A stretch of 63,103 bases of DNA, counting the filler, from Thermoplasmatota archaeon (lineage in GTDB: Archaea > Thermoplasmatota > E2 > JACPAO01 > JAHFTW01), in the NCBI GenBank assembly GCA_041623215.1. It is 9 parts of 9 records of this genome, joined end to end, with 100 filler letters (N's around TTAATTAATTAA, not from the genome) between each part and the next. Parts side by side here need not be neighbours in the genome. Positions count along the whole stretch, not along the records: positions 49,451 to 56,243 come from JBFJXH010000095.1; 8 more parts are not named here. One strand, given 5' to 3'. Every line of letters begins with the position of its first letter. The first letter of the stretch is position 1. Both the position numbers and the translations under genes were made by a program. Under the pieces are notes generated by a model. That model was given only the letters and a program-made list of their open reading frames with translations, had not been told where the DNA came from and did not search any database. Shown in pieces: positions 42,794 through 53,012 of the stretch.

Positions 42794-42985
42794 GGGCCCC
42801 CCTGGTGTCAGCCATCCAGCTGAGGTTCATGTTCGGGTTACACAAGCGTCGCAGGCCCTTGAAGCATTCGACAGCATGGGATTCTTTGAACGGCCAGCCA
42901 ATCCCGGCGCGTGGAGCAGCCACCCGCTTTGGAATCACCAGCGCCAAACATGGCCGCGTGGGCTTCCACTCCGGCTCGCGACGCC

Positions 42986-44368
42986 ATGCGTGTCGCCACA
43001 GACCTCGCAGCCACGCCGCATGACAAGGGGGCCATTAAGGCAAGCTTGCAAGAAGGCCGCAACCGCACCTTGGCCTTGGCGGGTGGCCTTAGCGATGAGC
43101 ACTTGCTCCGCCGAGCGCTGGACATCCTGTCTCCGCCAGTCTGGGACTTGGGTCACATGGCAAACTTCGAGGACTTGTGGCTGGTCCAGCGGTGGGGGCA
43201 TGATGAGACGCTGCCGGGCTGCAACAATCGGTACAACGCGATTCTCAACCCGCGGGCGATGCGGCCAAGCTTGGACTTGCCCGACCGGGCTGGCTGCCAG
43301 GATTATTTTTCGATGGTTCGTCGGCGTGCGCTGGCAATTTTGGCCGAGGATGACACAGATACTGGGGCCGACGCGTCTGACCCGCTCACTCGCGCGGGCT
43401 TCGTCTATTGGATGCTGGTCCTACATGAGCACCAGCACCAGGAAACCTTGCTCCAGACCATTCAGTTGCGTGCCGGCGACTACGACGTTCCGTTTCGGTA
43501 CCCGTCGCCGGCGGCGAGCCAAGTGGCTTCACCAAACAGAACTCCCGTATCCCTCAGCCCAGGCGCCGCCGACGGCCCGCCAACGACGACGCCGCGCAAC
43601 AACTGGATTCGCGTGGCGGCAGGGGCCTACCCAATGGGCCGGGCGCAAACGGCGGGGGTGTATGACAATGAAGCGCCGGCGCACACGGCCCGTGTGCAAG
43701 CTTTCGAGCTTGCCGCCTACCCGGTCACCAATGGAAGCTACCTAGACTTCATGGAGGCCGGCGGATACCACGACGAGGCCTGGTGGTCGACGCGGGGTCG
43801 CCATTGGCTTGCTCACACGAAACACCATGCACCGCTGCATTGGCGCGACGCGGGCGGAACGTGGCGCCGCCGGGGTGTCCTTGACGACGTGCCTGTGCAA
43901 ACCGTGGCCCACGAGATCCTGTGCCACGTAAACTACTGGGAGGCAGAGGCGTACGCGGCTTGGGCGGCCGCGTCGTTGCCGGGCCACCGAGGTGTCTCTT
44001 TGCCAACCGAAACCCAATGGGAAGTGGCGGCCAGCAACCACGAGCCCGCTACGCCCAGTACGGCCCGCGTGGACCACTACCACTGGGGTCCAGGGTCCAT
44101 TCACGACGACGTCACCAATCACCACGGACTGCGGCACATGCTTGGCGGCGTGTGGGAGTGGACGAAAAGCGGATTCGAGCGCTACCCCGGTACACAATGG
44201 TTCCCCTACCCGGACTACTCGGAGCGCTTTTACGGCGGCGACTTCCGGGTCCTGCGGGGGGGTTCATGGGCCACCCGTGCCACGATAGCCACGCCGTGGT
44301 TTCGTAATTGGGACCTGCCGCAGCGGAAGCAAATATTCAGCGGTATTCGGTTGGCGAGGCAACCCTGA
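42986..44368 (+). CDS. egtB: Ergothioneine sulfoxide synthase EgtB (type I-like)
   Basis: DinB domain WDLGH and HEHQHQET iron ligands, RAMR (RxxR), FGE-like domain, RNWDLPQRKQIFSG. Start uncertain (42911/42950/42986). Confidence 0.88.
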   Translation: MRVATDLAATPHDKGAIKASLQEGRNRTLALAGGLSDEHLLRRALDILSPPVWDLGHMANFEDLWLVQRWGHDETLPGCNNRYNAILNPRAMRPSLDLPDRAGCQDYFSMVRRRALAILAEDDTDTGADASDPLTRAGFVYWMLVLHEHQHQETLLQTIQLRAGDYDVPFRYPSPAASQVASPNRTPVSLSPGAADGPPTTTPRNNWIRVAAGAYPMGRAQTAGVYDNEAPAHTARVQAFELAAYPVTNGSYLDFMEAGGYHDEAWWSTRGRHWLAHTKHHAPLHWRDAGGTWRRRGVLDDVPVQTVAHEILCHVNYWEAEAYAAWAAASLPGHRGVSLPTETQWEVAASNHEPATPSTARVDHYHWGPGSIHDDVTNHHGLRHMLGGVWEWTKSGFERYPGTQWFPYPDYSERFYGGDFRVLRGGSWATRATIATPWFRNWDLPQRKQIFSGIRLARQP

Positions 44369-44997
44369 TGGGAGCACTGCTTGCCCATGCGGCCATGGGG
44401 GCCGTCTGGGGGCTGGTGGGCGTCGCCCTGGCCGGGCGAACCGAACGAGACTTGCCCCGTGCCGATGCAGCCCTAATCCTGCTGGTCTGTATCGGCGCCG
44501 CTCTACTAGGCGACCTCGACGCATGGTTCGGAGCCCACCGAGTAACCACGCACAACTTGTGGCTACTGGGTGTCGCCCCGGCGCTGCTTGCGACGCTTGC
44601 TCTTGGTTGGGATGCGCTTCGCGCGCATCCGCTACGGCACACCCTCCATGTGCTTCCGGCCGCTACCCTGTCGGAGCTTTGGCTCGATGTCTTTGGCCCT
44701 AGCCTCGCCGGTGCTGCGGCCCTACTGTGGCCCTTTGTTGGCACCAGCTTCGCGGCTAACAAGCAAATTCTTGGGACGCCAGATGTGCCCGTCTGGGACG
44801 CTTCCAGTGCCCTCGTGCTGGGTGCATTATGGAGCTTGGCTGTGGCGCTTGTGCACGCGCGGATGGCGGCCTCGTTGCAAGAGGCCCCCGGCGCGTCGTC
44901 GAGCCTACTGCTGGTGGCGGCCGGGGTTGGCCACGCACTGGTCGTGGTGCTGCCTTGGCTTGTACTGATTGCCGCGGGCGTCCTTGTGCCCGTCTAG
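44368..44997 (+). CDS. YdjM-like membrane-bound metal-dependent hydrolase
   Basis: GDLD....HRVTTHNL, SELWLD, LLWPF motifs; TGATG coupling to egtB. Confidence 0.6.
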   Translation: MGALLAHAAMGAVWGLVGVALAGRTERDLPRADAALILLVCIGAALLGDLDAWFGAHRVTTHNLWLLGVAPALLATLALGWDALRAHPLRHTLHVLPAATLSELWLDVFGPSLAGAAALLWPFVGTSFAANKQILGTPDVPVWDASSALVLGALWSLAVALVHARMAASLQEAPGASSSLLLVAAGVGHALVVVLPWLVLIAAGVLVPV

Positions 44998-45063
44998 GGC
45001 AACGGTCACGCGGGACTGAGCCAATGGAGCGACGCTGCAACATAGACTCCGGGGGCCAACCCT

Positions 45064-46062
45064 ATGAACGCCCGAGCGAGTCCCCCTGTTGTGTCTGCCC
45101 CGGAGGCCACTTTCACGAGCAGCGGCGTGCGTGCCGATGTCCAACGAGGCCTGCTCGACGAACCGCCGTGGCTTAGCAGCCTCTATTTCTACGACGAGCA
45201 CGGTAGTGGGTTGTTCGAACAAATCACGGAGACGCCAGAATACTATCCGACGCGAACTGAATTGTCTATTCTAGAGGAGCACGGAGATGCCATATTGCAA
45301 GCGGCGGACGCCGATGGCCAGCAGCTCTTGCTGGCCGAGCTTGGCAGCGGCAGTAGCGCGAAGACGCACGCACTGATTCGTCGGCTATTGCAGCGACAAG
45401 GCCCTACCACGTACGTCCCCGTGGACGTTTCAGGCGACTTTCTTGCGACCGTGGCCGCCAAACTTGAGGCGGAGCACCAGGGGCTCAGCGTCGAACCGCT
45501 GGCCGCCGAGTATGTGGAGGGACTGCGCCGAATCGGGCAGCTGCCCGCGGGACGCCGGCTGGTGCTATTCCTTGGCAGCAGCATCGGCAACTTTGAGCCG
45601 GATGAACAGGTTGGGCTGCTTCGCGCCGCCTTCGACTCCTTAGCGCCCGGAGACGCCCTGCTGCTTGGTACGGACCTCGTAAAAGATGCGGCTGTCCTGG
45701 AGGCCGCCTACAACGATGCGGCCGGCGTAACCACCCAATTCAACCGCAACATCATCACCCGTCTGAACAGGGAACTTGGTGGCAGCAACGACATAGCTGA
45801 TTGGTGCCACGTGGCTTTCTGGAATGCTCAGCAATCGCGCATCGAAATGCACCTCGAGGCAGTTCGGGAGACCACGCTGGACTTTCCGGACGCCGAGGTG
45901 CGGCGCACTTTCCAACAAGGGGAGCGTATTCACACGGAAAACTCGTACAAGTTCACGCTCGAAGGCGCGGCTACGATGGCGGAGGCGGCCGGCTGGAGCC
46001 TAGAGCAGTCCTGGCGAGATTCGCAAGAATGGTTTGCCTTGCATTTGCTGAGGCGTAGCTAA
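45064..46062 (+). CDS. egtD: L-histidine N-alpha-methyltransferase
   Basis: YFYDEHGS.LFEQIT..PEYYPTR, ELGSGS..KT, FLGSSIGNF, AYND..GVT, IHTENSYKF. Confidence 0.93.
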   Translation: MNARASPPVVSAPEATFTSSGVRADVQRGLLDEPPWLSSLYFYDEHGSGLFEQITETPEYYPTRTELSILEEHGDAILQAADADGQQLLLAELGSGSSAKTHALIRRLLQRQGPTTYVPVDVSGDFLATVAAKLEAEHQGLSVEPLAAEYVEGLRRIGQLPAGRRLVLFLGSSIGNFEPDEQVGLLRAAFDSLAPGDALLLGTDLVKDAAVLEAAYNDAAGVTTQFNRNIITRLNRELGGSNDIADWCHVAFWNAQQSRIEMHLEAVRETTLDFPDAEVRRTFQQGERIHTENSYKFTLEGAATMAEAAGWSLEQSWRDSQEWFALHLLRRS

Positions 46063-46111
46063 TGTGGACTTGGCGGGTTGCGCGCATACGCGGGCCTAGT
46101 GAGGCACGCTG

Positions 46112-46915
46112 ATGTGTCGCCATGCTGGCTACGTGGGGCCCGGCATTGCCATCAGTGAGTTGACGCACGATTTGCCACACAGCCTTGAGCGCCAATCATA
46201 CGCCGCACGCGAACTACTGACGGGAACGGTCTGCGCGGACGGCTTCGGCGTGGCGTGGTTCGTGGACGGGCATCGGGTGCCAGCGCGCTACGCGAATGTA
46301 GCTCCAATCTGGTCGGACCGGAACCTGCCGTCTTTCGGACCACTGACGAGGTCTGCGAACGCGATTGCCTGGATTCGCAATGCCACAGTGGCAGGGGGAA
46401 ACAGCGATGCCAATACCCAGCCCTTTGTGGATGAAGGCACCGGCATTGCCTTCACCCATAACGGATTTCTGGATGACTTTGCGGCTACTTGGCGCGCCTG
46501 GTTCACGACCGAAATGATTCCCCCATCCAGACATGCACACCTGCGCGGTGATACGGATTCAGAGCACATCTTTCACGCCTTGCTACACCGGGTTGAAGAG
46601 GAGCCAGAAGGCCCGGCCGCGCTCGCCACCGCTGTGCAAGGATTGCTGCGGGACATTCGCGTCCGGGCGCGCGACAACGGCACCATCGCCCAACTCAACC
46701 TGTTGGTGACGGACGGCACCCGCCTCGTGGCCAGTCGGTGCGGCCAGGATGAGCGCCAAAACAGCTTGTACCTGCTCGTGGATGGCGACGAGTTTCCTGA
46801 TGGCGCCGTGGTTGCCAGTGAACCGCTCTATGACGACCCTCTCTGGGTGCCGGTCGAGACAGATTCGGTGGTGGTGCTCCAAGCGGGTGCGCCTCCGGTG
46901 CGACTAACAATCTAG
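46112..46915 (+). CDS. egtC: Class II glutamine amidotransferase-fold amidohydrolase EgtC
   Basis: N-terminal MCRH nucleophile, ADGFGVAW, HNG, GDTDSE, VASEP; follows egtD. Confidence 0.85.
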   Translation: MCRHAGYVGPGIAISELTHDLPHSLERQSYAARELLTGTVCADGFGVAWFVDGHRVPARYANVAPIWSDRNLPSFGPLTRSANAIAWIRNATVAGGNSDANTQPFVDEGTGIAFTHNGFLDDFAATWRAWFTTEMIPPSRHAHLRGDTDSEHIFHALLHRVEEEPEGPAALATAVQGLLRDIRVRARDNGTIAQLNLLVTDGTRLVASRCGQDERQNSLYLLVDGDEFPDGAVVASEPLYDDPLWVPVETDSVVVLQAGAPPVRLTI

Positions 46916-49450: not shown

Positions 49451-51838
49451 CCGGTCAACGATGCGCCGGCCGCCGTGGACGACGATGCCAGCGGCCCCGA
49501 AGACCAGGCGTTGGACATCGACGTGTTGATTAACGACGTAGACGCCGAGGGCGATGCCCTTGCAATCGTCGCCGTGACCCAGCCACCGAATGGTGCCGTG
49601 GTGTTCAACGCAAGTGGCGTAACATTCCGGCCGCAGGCAGAGTTTGAGGGCGTGACTACCTTCGACTATACAATTGAGGATACGGGTGGCCTTCGTTCGT
49701 CGGCCACGGTGACTGTCACAATCATCGGCGCCAACGATCCGCCCAATGCGCCCGACGTTTCTGCTTCGACGGATGAAGACACGTCCGTGCTGATTCACGT
49801 CTTGCGGGATGCCACGGATGTGGACGGAGACACGCTCCACATCGAAGCAATCACGCAGCCAGAGCATGGCGGTGCGGCCATCGAAAGCGGTCGCGTACGA
49901 TATGCGCCGCCCGCCGATTGGTTCGGTGTCACGACATTTAGCTACACTGCGGCGGATGGAAACGGCGGCACGGATGATGGCCTAGTCACGGTCACGGTGC
50001 GATCCGTGAACGACGCGCCGGTTGCGGTGGATGACGGTGCCTCAACCGTACAGGATGTGTCCGTTGACGTGCAGGTTCTCGCCAACGACTCTGACCCAGA
50101 GGGCGACGCGCTCACAGTGGCAGACGCAGGTCCGGCCAACAACGGCCAAGTGTCCACGAACGGGTCCTGGGTGCACTACGTGCCCAACCCAGGCTTCGCA
50201 GGCCTAGACTCGTTTGGTTATCGCATCGTGGATGGCCAAGGCGGCGAGGCGACGGCAACTGTGACGGTGCAAGTTGGAGACATCAATGATGCCCCTGTGG
50301 CGGTCGCTGATGCGGTGACAATCAACGAAGATTCCGAAGCCCACGTGGCCGTTCTTGCCAATGACTATGACCCCGAAGGCGACTCGTTCACGCTCACCGC
50401 CGTTGCCGGGGCCCAACATGGTATCGCGCTTCTCAATGGCACGCTTGTGGACTACTTCCCCAACCCGGACTGGAATGGCGAAGAGGTGCTCATCTACAAT
50501 GTAACGGATGTGCACGGGGCCGTGGGGCAAGGATCGCTTACTGTGACGGTTCTGCCGGTCAACGATGCGCCCATCGCCAATGACGACGAATACGTGGTTG
50601 TGCAAGACACGACTGTGGACTTGGATGTGCTCTTGAACGACACAGACCCCGAAGGCGATTACTTCGAAGTGCTGGGTGCCGACCCGCCCGACCAAGGGGG
50701 CTCCACTGACGCGCAAGAATCGTTCGTCCGTTACACGCCGGCACCCGGCTTCACGGGCATGGAAAGGTTCCGGTATCTCATCTGGGACGGGGACTCATTT
50801 TCATCGACCCGCGAGGCTTGGGTCACCGCCTACGTGCATCCCGATTCGGACGGGGACGGTGTCGTCGATGCGATGGACAATTGTCCCTCGACCGCCAACC
50901 CGCAACAAGCCGACAGCGACGGTGACAAGGTAGGGGATGTGTGCGACCCGGACGCTGACCCTGATGGCGACGGGCGCGTAAACGACGTGGACAATTGCCC
51001 GCTCGTAGCCAACCCCGACCAAGCCAACGCGGATAACGACGAGTACGGCGATGCGTGCGACAGTGACCGCGATGGCGACCAAGTGGACAACGAAGTCGAT
51101 AACTGTCCTGACACAGCGAACCCCAACCAAGACAACCTCGACCGAGACAGTTTCGGGGATGCGTGTGACGACGATGTTGATGGCGATGGCGAACCAAATG
51201 CAACCGACAACTGCGTGACCACACCAAATCCTGGCCAATTCGACCTAGACGGCGACCGGTTGGGTGACGCCTGTGACCCTGACCGAGACGGTGACTTGAT
51301 TGCCAATGGAAGCGACAATTGTCCATCTCATTCGAATGCCAACCAGGCGGACGCCGACCGTGACGGCAAGGGCGACGCGTGCGACCCGGTGTGCAACTTC
51401 ACCATCAGTCTCGCCCTTGACCGACAACGATGGAGCATCTTCGACAACATCACGGGCAATCTCACCATCGACGGTCTTCCCACCTGCCTCGACGTGGAAG
51501 GCCTGCAAGTAAACCTCACCAGCACATACTACCTGCCCGCTGCCATGGACCCTTCACTCGGGGACGTGCTTCGCAACGAAGTGATTCCCACGCTGTGGAC
51601 GGCGCAGTTGGACTGCCAACTCGATGCCCAAGGGCGGTGCCAGTTTGTCGTGAACAAGACTGCCTTGGCGGGCGTTGGCGGCGATCCAATTCTGAACATT
51701 CCGACGGTCATTCAGGATGTGCCGCTCGAGGAGCCCGATGGGCGCTGGATCGTGGACGCTTGGGTGGCCAGCGCCGATGTCGAAGCGACCGCTGCGACCT
51801 CGTACCATGTCCATGTGCTAGACCCGGGACTCGCCTAG
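49451..51838 (+). CDS. Large surface protein: tandem cadherin-like/Ig repeats + thrombospondin type-3 Ca-binding repeats (5' truncated)
   Basis: About five VNDAP.A.DD...VL.ND.D.EGD repeats, then five DNC...N..Q.D.D.D..GD.CD units. Confidence 0.88.
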   Translation, partial: PVNDAPAAVDDDASGPEDQALDIDVLINDVDAEGDALAIVAVTQPPNGAVVFNASGVTFRPQAEFEGVTTFDYTIEDTGGLRSSATVTVTIIGANDPPNAPDVSASTDEDTSVLIHVLRDATDVDGDTLHIEAITQPEHGGAAIESGRVRYAPPADWFGVTTFSYTAADGNGGTDDGLVTVTVRSVNDAPVAVDDGASTVQDVSVDVQVLANDSDPEGDALTVADAGPANNGQVSTNGSWVHYVPNPGFAGLDSFGYRIVDGQGGEATATVTVQVGDINDAPVAVADAVTINEDSEAHVAVLANDYDPEGDSFTLTAVAGAQHGIALLNGTLVDYFPNPDWNGEEVLIYNVTDVHGAVGQGSLTVTVLPVNDAPIANDDEYVVVQDTTVDLDVLLNDTDPEGDYFEVLGADPPDQGGSTDAQESFVRYTPAPGFTGMERFRYLIWDGDSFSSTREAWVTAYVHPDSDGDGVVDAMDNCPSTANPQQADSDGDKVGDVCDPDADPDGDGRVNDVDNCPLVANPDQANADNDEYGDACDSDRDGDQVDNEVDNCPDTANPNQDNLDRDSFGDACDDDVDGDGEPNATDNCVTTPNPGQFDLDGDRLGDACDPDRDGDLIANGSDNCPSHSNANQADADRDGKGDACDPVCNFTISLALDRQRWSIFDNITGNLTIDGLPTCLDVEGLQVNLTSTYYLPAAMDPSLGDVLRNEVIPTLWTAQLDCQLDAQGRCQFVVNKTALAGVGGDPILNIPTVIQDVPLEEPDGRWIVDAWVASADVEATAATSYHVHVLDPGLA

Positions 51839-51876
51839 TCCATCAGCGTTATACGGTGCACGGACTCGGACGGGTC

Positions 51877-52386
51877 ATGACAGAGCGTACCGAATGGCTC
51901 CAGGAGCAACGGGACCAAAGCGGCTACCAAAGCGTGGACCCCGCGCCCCCGGCGGCGGCTGTGGGCCTCGAGCCCTCGGTCCCAGAGCTTCGAGCTTCGC
52001 TCTTGGATACAAGTTCGTCCATGTTCCAGCGGATGCGCGCCGTGTTTGCCCTTCGTAACCGGGGCGGCCCCGAAGCGGTCGACGCCCTGGCGGCGGCCTT
52101 CAAGGATCCGTCGGCCCTGTTGCGTCATGAATTGGCGTATGTGCTTGGCCAAATGGGTGACCGGCATGCTATTCCCGTGCTAACCGACGTTTTGGCTACC
52201 GAGGACGAGCACGTAATGGTGCGCCACGAAGCGGCCGAAGCACTCGGCGCTATTGGCGATGAAAGTGCGCGCGCCGTTTTGGAGCGCTTCCTCTCTGACC
52301 CCCACCCCGAAGTGGCGGAGTCATGCGAGGTTGCCCTGGATTTGCTGGACTGGGTCAACTCCGACGACCTGCACTACGCAGCCTAG
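51877..52386 (+). CDS. HEAT-repeat protein, half-size deoxyhypusine hydroxylase (DOHH)-like
   Basis: SVDPAPP, RAVFALRN.GG, SALLRHELAYVLGQ, MVRHEAAEALGAIG, ESCEVALD; TTATA ~24 nt upstream of the ATG. Confidence 0.8.
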   Translation: MTERTEWLQEQRDQSGYQSVDPAPPAAAVGLEPSVPELRASLLDTSSSMFQRMRAVFALRNRGGPEAVDALAAAFKDPSALLRHELAYVLGQMGDRHAIPVLTDVLATEDEHVMVRHEAAEALGAIGDESARAVLERFLSDPHPEVAESCEVALDLLDWVNSDDLHYAA

Positions 52387-52406: not shown

Positions 52407-53012
52407 TTAATCATCTTCGGCCACCGTTGAGCTACTTTGGATGCCCGCGGCCCTAAGCTGGCGCGCCAACTCTACCTCGAGTTCCCAAAGGTGAATGGGC
52501 ATGAGGTGGATGACCTTGAAACCGTGGGCCTCGTAGCGGCTGGTCTTGATTGCCATGCGGTTGGCATACGACCGAAAACCGGCGCCACCCCAGTACTCTA
52601 CAATGACGCGGCCCTCAATGAGAAAATCGGGGCGCAGGCCTCCCGCGACCTTGGGCTCGTAGGCAAACGACATGCCCGCGTTGGTGAGGAAATTGTGGAT
52701 GCGAGCTTCGGGGCCGCTGCGGACCCACGGCCCTGCTGCGGTTTGGAAGGGCTTGCCGCGTGGCGGCCGTGAGCGGGCCGACTCAGTCCCTGAAGCCGTG
52801 CGGCGACGCCTGAACCAACCGGGGGCCACGCAAAGCGACACTTTTGCTGGCAAAGGAACCTTCCTCCTCAAGCTACCGCGCCACCGCGCCGCTGGGAACG
52901 CGCATGGATGACGCCCCGGTGGGCCCAAACGTCTCCTCAAGCGCCGGTTGGGGGCTTTCCTTCGTCTCCTAGGCGACGCAGGGGCCTTGTCAATGCTCGG
53001 CTTCTGGAGCAT
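52407..53012 (-). CDS. Hypothetical protein with PD-(D/E)XK-like nuclease domain
   Basis: VRS..E..I.NFL...G..F.YE....PDF......IVEYWG...Y......K...Y pattern; start uncertain. Confidence 0.55.
   Translation of the reverse strand: MLQKPSIDKAPASPRRRRKAPNRRLRRRLGPPGRHPCAFPAARWRGSLRRKVPLPAKVSLCVAPGWFRRRRTASGTESARSRPPRGKPFQTAAGPWVRSGPEARIHNFLTNAGMSFAYEPKVAGGLRPDFLIEGRVIVEYWGGAGFRSYANRMAIKTSRYEAHGFKVIHLMPIHLWELEVELARQLRAAGIQSSSTVAEDD

Follow-up and report, generated by a model that had tools for sequence, protein, structure and literature searches.

A stand-alone single-lobe homologue of deoxyhypusine hydroxylase in Thermoplasmatota archaea as a candidate aIF5A hydroxylase

The window, the whole stretch of DNA analyzed here (63,103 nucleotides from a Thermoplasmatota archaeon, assembly GCA_041623215.1, composed of nine contigs joined by N), contains on contig C95 of the host assembly (G000) a gene whose 169-aa product is, judging by its sequence and predicted structure, a true homologue of the eukaryotic deoxyhypusine hydroxylase (DOHH), present in an archaeon as a stand-alone single half. 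Our analysis makes this protein (referred to as half-DOHH) a candidate enzyme, which would probably act as a homodimer that rebuilds the di-iron site of DOHH and hydroxylates deoxyhypusine-aIF5A with O2. In the accessible parts of papers from 2012 (PMC3306375), 2016 (PMC5178350), 2018 (PMC6105217), 2020 (PMC7432094) and 2021 (PMC8153317), archaea are described as having no known DOHH orthologue, and a 2026 review (PMC13602936) does not mention DOHH; the HE sites of the enzyme are treated in the available portion of PMC11203672. Our literature search, which largely leaves aside subscription papers and supplements, revealed no publication on a DOHH from archaea or of half size. Genome annotation tables may carry the automatic label, and some members of the family are in fact already auto-labelled in databases, with no descriptive paper found.

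The gene and its elements are located in the window as follows:

51839..51854 (+): predicted promoter region; a BRE-like stretch directly followed by the TATA-like box TTATAC (51849-51854)
51877..52386 (+): half-size DOHH homologue, 169 aa; N-terminal helix, SVDPAPP linker, then four HEAT-like helical hairpins; model pLDDT 92
51931..51951 (+): SVDPAPP, residues 19-25; equivalent of the motif preceding the eukaryotic DOHH C-half
52126..52149 (+): first His-Glu motif H84-E85, plus G91; human H56-E57 / H207-E208, and G214
52225..52230 (+): second His-Glu motif H117-E118; human H89-E90 / H240-E241

The initial annotation had described a complete gene starting 38 nt past the previous stop and equipped with its own TATA-like box, and both points were borne out. 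Translation of 51877-52386 (+) gives 169 residues and a stop codon, and the upstream cadherin/TSP3 gene ends with the TAG at 51836-51838, 38 nt ahead of the half-DOHH ATG. The TTATAC box occupies positions -28 to -23 relative to the start codon. Among 18 family genes (the window gene included) the AT fraction amounts to 0.72-1.00 at -28 to -25 and 0.94 at -33, dropping to 0.00-0.11 at -31/-30 and -22/-21; the box exceeds chance, since the same register is AT-rich across all these genes. Its spacing to the ATG would predict a leaderless or near-leaderless transcript. The frame stays open for 321 codons upstream of the ATG, in a GC-rich genome. A longer start (a 318-aa frame from 51430) was rejected because it overlaps the upstream gene and because the promoter box fixes the ATG; no homologous extension was seen in relatives.

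Contig C95 (6793 bp, 62% GC) has a median tetranucleotide fit within an assembly of 1.94 Mb, which is 88% complete and 0.04% contaminated. In two public marine DNA runs a single assembled contig per run covers the gene from end to end, free of indels and joints; these contigs add no independent support, because the runs may be the source sample. Directly relevant to the archaeal origin of the contig, on which the initial annotation had asked for confirmation, is purH, which lies downstream of half-DOHH in 17 of 25 family loci and is 71-84% identical to the C95 copy; we therefore assign C95 to this Thermoplasmatota lineage. The same-family neighbours of half-DOHH are purH and phosphoglycerate mutase, and other lineages differ. 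The upstream gene (49475-51838, +) encodes a surface-protein-like product in which thrombospondin type 3 repeats come after five Ig/cadherin-like domains; being near the contig edge, it may be incomplete. An opposite-strand ORF after half-DOHH (52407-53012, -) has no Pfam or NCBIfam match, and its homologues occur near half-DOHH in 4 of 25 family loci; its C-terminal part (IHNFL..FAYEP..RPDF..IVEYWG) resembles a PD-(D/E)XK nuclease domain. Elsewhere in the window, on contig C94, EgtB-, EgtD- and EgtC-like ORFs (42911-46915) resemble, by eye, an ergothioneine cluster.

In a sequence search of the PDB the 169-aa protein finds human DOHH first (4d4z, E 4e-69; 120 bits to one half and 123 to the other), and among the alignments listed no designed HEAT repeat exceeds 48 bits per domain. 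Its AlphaFold model (pLDDT 92) places the same structure at Foldseek rank 1 (TM 0.81) and aligns to residues 130-285 of 4d4z with Z 21.6, rmsd 2.0 A over 154 residues and 49% identity, the next match having Z 17.6. Pfam HEAT_2 and HEAT_PBS also match the protein above cut-off, and the NCBIfam equivalog cut-offs are far from reached (47.8 vs 300 bits for NblB, 27 vs 330 bits for CpcE). The comparison of DOHH with generic HEAT_2/PBS-lyase profiles, suggested by the initial annotation, was performed with a profile built from 292 eukaryote-type DOHH halves only and with a signature of 24 residues whose conservation is 80% or higher in the N- as well as in the C-halves of eukaryotes. The 169-aa protein scores 195 bits on this profile (eukaryotic halves 110-200, 19 generic HEAT controls 19-55) and keeps 24/24 signature residues (21-24 in 112 Thermoplasmatota members, 9-16 in the same 19 controls). 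With human DOHH as the top match, this score and the complete signature led us to reject the reading of a generic PBS-lyase/HEAT protein. Identity to eukaryotic halves is 45-49%, as compared to a 40% mean between the N- and C-halves themselves.

All sequence features listed in the initial annotation are present: the HE motifs at 84-85 and 117-118, with a spacing of 33, and SVDPAPP, RAVFALRNRGG, YVLGQ, AEALGAIG and ESCEVALD; the C-terminus reads LHYAA. The iron-ligand and substrate-binding positions of one human lobe (His, Glu, His, Glu, Gly) are all kept as H84, E85, G91, H117 and E118, where H56/H207 correspond to H84, E57/E208 to E85, G214 to G91, H89/H240 to H117 and E90/E241 to E118. H84 and E85, as well as the iron ligands, are invariant over 104 aligned members. 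With eukaryotic DOHH (human 4D4Z/4D50, yeast Lia1, EC 1.14.99.29) the archaeal protein has in common the one-lobe HEAT fold, the HE pair 33 apart, a Gly seven residues after the first His, SVDPAPP and the 24/24 signature. The difference lies in architecture: a eukaryotic chain has two lobes that face one another across a non-heme di-iron site, with eight HEAT repeats arranged as a symmetric dyad and four HE motifs, whereas the archaeal protein has one lobe and two HE motifs, and would reach four only as a dimer. On the other hand, generic HEAT proteins (CpcE, NblB, MTH187, alphaRep) have just the repeat fold in common, the controls having no paired HE motifs and at most 55 bits.

The half-size form is characteristic of a family and not of a single locus: of the top 120 homologues, 63 have lengths of 165-198 aa, and exactly one HE pair is found in 112 out of 112 distinct Thermoplasmatota members extracted from genome loci. 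No second half was detected in G000 by tblastn with the 169-aa protein and four full-length DOHHs, and the assembly has a single HEAT_2 match. The genome counts that follow cover Thermoplasmatota. Half-DOHH is present in 81 of 301 Thermoplasmatota genomes and in nearly all genomes of the same family (23/24 and 28/29, in two counts), and is under purifying selection (pN 0.13-0.20 vs pS 0.59-0.75, 6 pairs). Its distribution largely follows that of the heme-copper oxidase subunit COX1: among the 301 genomes both genes occur in 77, half-DOHH alone in 4, COX1 alone in 51 and neither in 169. We treat this co-occurrence as a pattern and attach no statistic to it, because related genomes are not independent. 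Families without COX1 (f4 0/39, f10 0/37, f22 0/15, f5 0/12) have no half-DOHH match, and one small family that we take to be acidophile-like (f37) has COX1 and no half-DOHH match. Six genomes of the COX1-less f4 encode pure HEAT proteins of ~290 aa with two matches (L302-L307), which have the size of DOHH and lack the signature; none has an HE motif, so they were not considered DOHH and served as controls.

Among the best 80 of 394 confirmed loci, the closest have titles that name a Thermoplasmatota or Thermoplasmata archaeon (some of them mislabelled), and those of Poseidoniaceae and Thalassarchaeaceae come next. The window protein is 52-62% identical to members of Marine Group II type (families f13 and f30, which we take as Marine Group II by sequence and gene context, and which have only the phylum in common with G000) and 43-52% identical to those of other Thermoplasmatota. 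Half-size proteins labelled 'deoxyhypusine monooxygenase' in Marine Group II (Poseidoniales) and other Thermoplasmatota have the same family membership and architecture; the Marine Group II half-DOHH belongs to another family of the phylum and another neighbourhood (primase, as opposed to purH and phosphoglycerate mutase here). In G116 (L178:3090-4469, -) half-DOHH and its upstream gene form one 463-codon open frame, a possible fusion, and the half-DOHH match at G270:C122:4341-4793 (Marine Group II-type) has two internal stops, as in a possible pseudogene or an assembly error. In half-size searches directed toward Asgard archaea and bacteria the listed matches were two-lobe DOHH-like or long HEAT proteins, and the named entries of one 58-match search were Thermoplasmatota, Thermoplasmata and Euryarchaeota archaea and one partial animal DOHH.

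A second group of halves is found in Nitrososphaeria and Bathyarchaeia. In the ESM Atlas, three clusters from archaea bear the automatic name deoxyhypusine monooxygenase, and HEAT clusters of 164-170 aa come from Bathyarchaeota and Nitrososphaerota. Scanning metagenomes for the motif (at least 120 loci, the first HE motif being selected by the pattern and the second left free) yielded 119 ORFs of about 145-175 aa, 109 of which have both HE motifs; the matching clusters (7/10 queries matched) belong to Nitrosopumilus, Nitrosopelagicus, Nitrososphaeraceae and Bathyarchaeota, many auto-labelled 'deoxyhypusine monooxygenase'. At L186:2779-4368, on a Nitrososphaeraceae contig, a half-size two-HE gene lies directly upstream, on the same strand, of a deoxyhypusine synthase (DHS) gene scoring above cut-off, an adjacency found at 1 of 120 loci, many with short flanks. 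These proteins resemble the window protein in being half-size, in having two HE motifs and, in this one case, in lying beside DHS, but they lack DPAPP, have a spacing of 32, keep 17-20/24 signature residues and score 75-98 bits; designed HEAT repeats outrank 4D4Z for them in both sequence and fold searches. They may thus be regarded as weaker DOHH candidates.

The other components of the pathway are unevenly represented in the host genome. G000 encodes aIF5A with a KPGKHG loop (G000:C16:629-1012) and COX1. DHS, which is present in 40 of 41 genomes searched (the sole exception being G000) and in 24/24 family relatives, mostly as two paralogues, had no match in this assembly (88% complete), and neither did spermidine synthase. 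The expected site of one DHS paralogue falls past a contig end. The site syntenic to the DHS of a same-genus genome (C68:3489-4794) is occupied by other genes, and an assembly gap there does not explain the absence, since the contig is continuous. Comparison of a relative's DHS with the sequencing runs X1 and X2 revealed ~80%-alike pieces at depths of 5.2 and 7.2, near the host depth, which cannot be assigned to the host. No aIF5A or DHS gene is found within the flanks of 154 Thermoplasmatota half-DOHH loci.

The proposed mechanism draws on the human enzyme. According to the accessible part of PMC8153317, the di-iron centre arises by cooperation of the two arms of DOHH, and the available text of PMC9117371 has each human lobe supplying three iron ligands. 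A lone half would need a partner, because both arms cooperate in one binuclear centre; dimerization would be the simplest solution for a single-lobe protein whose ligands are all invariant and for which no partner gene was found. Two copies would pair head-to-head and rebuild the di-iron site, the pseudo-two-fold axis of the eukaryotic enzyme becoming a true two-fold in the archaeal dimer. By analogy with human DOHH (as described in part of PMC9117371), each subunit would contribute H84, H117 and E118 as iron ligands, so that two subunits would supply six (human H56, H89, E90, H207, H240 and E241), and E85, E118 and G91 would grip the deoxyhypusine side chain. O2 would then give a peroxo-diferric intermediate, leading to hydroxylation at C2 of the aminobutyl group. 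The half-size relative beside DHS at L186 and the presence of aIF5A and COX1 in G000 count in favour of such a hydroxylase. Counting against it are the unmatched DHS and spermidine synthase in G000, the 154 loci with neither aIF5A nor DHS in their flanks, the 51 COX1-positive genomes with no half-DOHH match and the predominance of deoxyhypusine in early analyses of Thermoplasmales (PMC5178350), although f37, which we take to be acidophile-like, has no half-DOHH match; moreover, a symmetric dimer would have to bind an asymmetric substrate.

Several other readings were weighed against this one. The 154 loci with no genomic link to aIF5A or DHS, the two DHS-like genes in most family genomes and the unmatched DHS in G000 would all suit a homodimeric di-iron oxygenase acting on another substrate, such as a polyamine (free or protein-bound) produced via the second DHS-like paralogue, or engaged in O2 or iron handling; a distribution that tracks O2 respiration would be expected of any oxygenase. 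We consider this unlikely in view of the retained deoxyhypusine-binding residues (E85, E118, G91) and full signature, of a similarity to the eukaryotic halves as close as that between the N- and C-halves mutually, and of eIF5A being the sole DOHH substrate reported in the accessible part of PMC9117371. One chain has only three of the six iron ligands, as would befit a monomer, non-catalytic or with a mononuclear metal, that binds deoxyhypusine-aIF5A as a cap or chaperone with no hydroxylation. The invariance of these ligands, together with a near-restriction to O2-respiring genomes that is expected of an oxygenase and unexpected of a binder, makes such a role quite unlikely.

That the protein is one subunit of a heterodimer, the partner being a diverged second half encoded elsewhere (a split gene), could be suspected in a genome that is merely 88% complete. 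Nearly all carriers have one match per genome, however, including the single-contig G070 and G196; the double matches in G004, G016 and G122 come from incomplete pieces located where contigs end, G000 has its one HEAT_2 match only, and the traits of N- and C-halves are combined in one sequence, so this arrangement seems very improbable. As for a contaminant or decaying fragment of a eukaryotic DOHH, or an assembly break, an identity of ~50% to eukaryotic DOHH could raise the suspicion, yet the adjacent purH, the low contamination, the conserved archaeal promoter, the purifying selection and the unbroken contigs in two runs leave it next to no chance; we regard it as refuted because the gene is conserved family-wide.

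The origin of the single lobe was addressed with three trees of 132 columns, two quick (118 and 53 rows) and one careful (49 rows, LG+G4), from which two long-branch proteins had been dropped with their two halves each (four rows). In all three, the N-halves of eukaryotes group as one clade, and so do their C-halves (100/97 and 99/95 in the careful tree). The window protein's family and Marine Group II form one clade (97/84) outside both eukaryotic crown groups, so that in the phylogeny with both halves, as envisaged in the initial annotation, the family stands beside and not inside either half. The four groups (N-halves, C-halves, window family and Marine Group II) are united with support of 99, 98 and 98/92, on a branch separate from the other Thermoplasmatota and from the Nitrososphaeria/Bathyarchaeia clade. 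In AU tests (LG+G4, on the 49 rows of the careful tree) a single Thermoplasmatota clade had p 0.057 and 0.017 (two runs, same split), the N- and C-halves together p 0.06, the C-half with the window-family clade p 0.18, and monophyly of the order to which the genome belongs p 0.002. The gene tree thus conflicts with taxonomy, implying some transfer.

The sequence itself is a mosaic: its core is N-half-like and its flanks C-half-like. A DP motif lies ahead of the lobe in 114/122 C-halves and 111/112 archaeal halves, as compared to 3/122 N-halves. On a scale ranging from +33 (N-like) to -33 (C-like), the catalytic core reaches +21, with a mean of +8 in the family and a value of +11 for the Marine Group II type. 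The earlier statement that the motifs are those of the eukaryotic C-half therefore holds for SVDPAPP, but the catalytic core is nearer to the N-half. Such a mixture is more readily reconciled with a pre-duplication unit than with a shortened C-half of modern type, and half-DOHH may represent the pre-duplication form, on trees sampled from eukaryotes, Thermoplasmatota and Nitrososphaeria/Bathyarchaeia; a single lobe acquired from a stem eukaryote is a possible alternative origin. Of the two origins initially proposed, the pre-duplication form agrees with the mosaic, and the N-like core and the position outside the crown groups speak against a modern eukaryotic C-half that was simply truncated. 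The N-terminal EWLQ, offered as an origin hint for its likeness to the eukaryotic inter-domain region, did not hold up as a linker relic, its Trp occurring in just 16 of 30 family members and in 0/66 Marine Group II-type and 0/16 other Thermoplasmatota members. The combined scenario, in which O2-respiring archaea possess the entire hypusine pathway, its last enzyme being a homodimeric single-lobe DOHH, and in which eukaryotic DOHH arose by tandem duplication from the window-family/Marine Group II clade, is tentative and in our judgment somewhat doubtful.

The reach of the finding within Archaea is narrower than the 'missing archaeal DOHH' announced in the initial annotation: a candidate half does exist in an archaeon, but the phrase is overstated. 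A HEAT_2 search gave no match in Sulfolobus acidocaldarius, where hypusine has been measured, or in M. jannaschii, and owing to the former result the half-DOHH family cannot explain crenarchaeal hypusine. In early analyses, as related in part of PMC5178350, hypusine was reported for Crenarchaea, and Euryarchaeota, Thermoplasmales among them, had mostly deoxyhypusine; some species form hypusine without oxygen, according to the available text of PMC7432094. Another enzyme is needed for hypusine in Sulfolobales and anaerobic Crenarchaea, where the older puzzle stays. On the other hand, the family predicts hypusine in lineages for which we found no measurement.

Half-DOHH offers a small soluble candidate for the role of DOHH, of which no archaeal orthologue is known according to the papers of 2012-2021. 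If it is active, the pseudo-symmetric eukaryotic DOHH would have a truly symmetric homodimeric counterpart, which would serve as a simpler model for a peroxo-diiron intermediate of unusual stability; hypusine would be present in abundant marine archaea, and the final step in a modification essential to eukaryotes would have an archaeal sister tied to oxygen use. If the duplication reading is true, half-DOHH would be a living pre-duplication form, and aerobic Thermoplasmatota would be the donor or the closest relative of an essential O2-dependent enzyme of eukaryotes.
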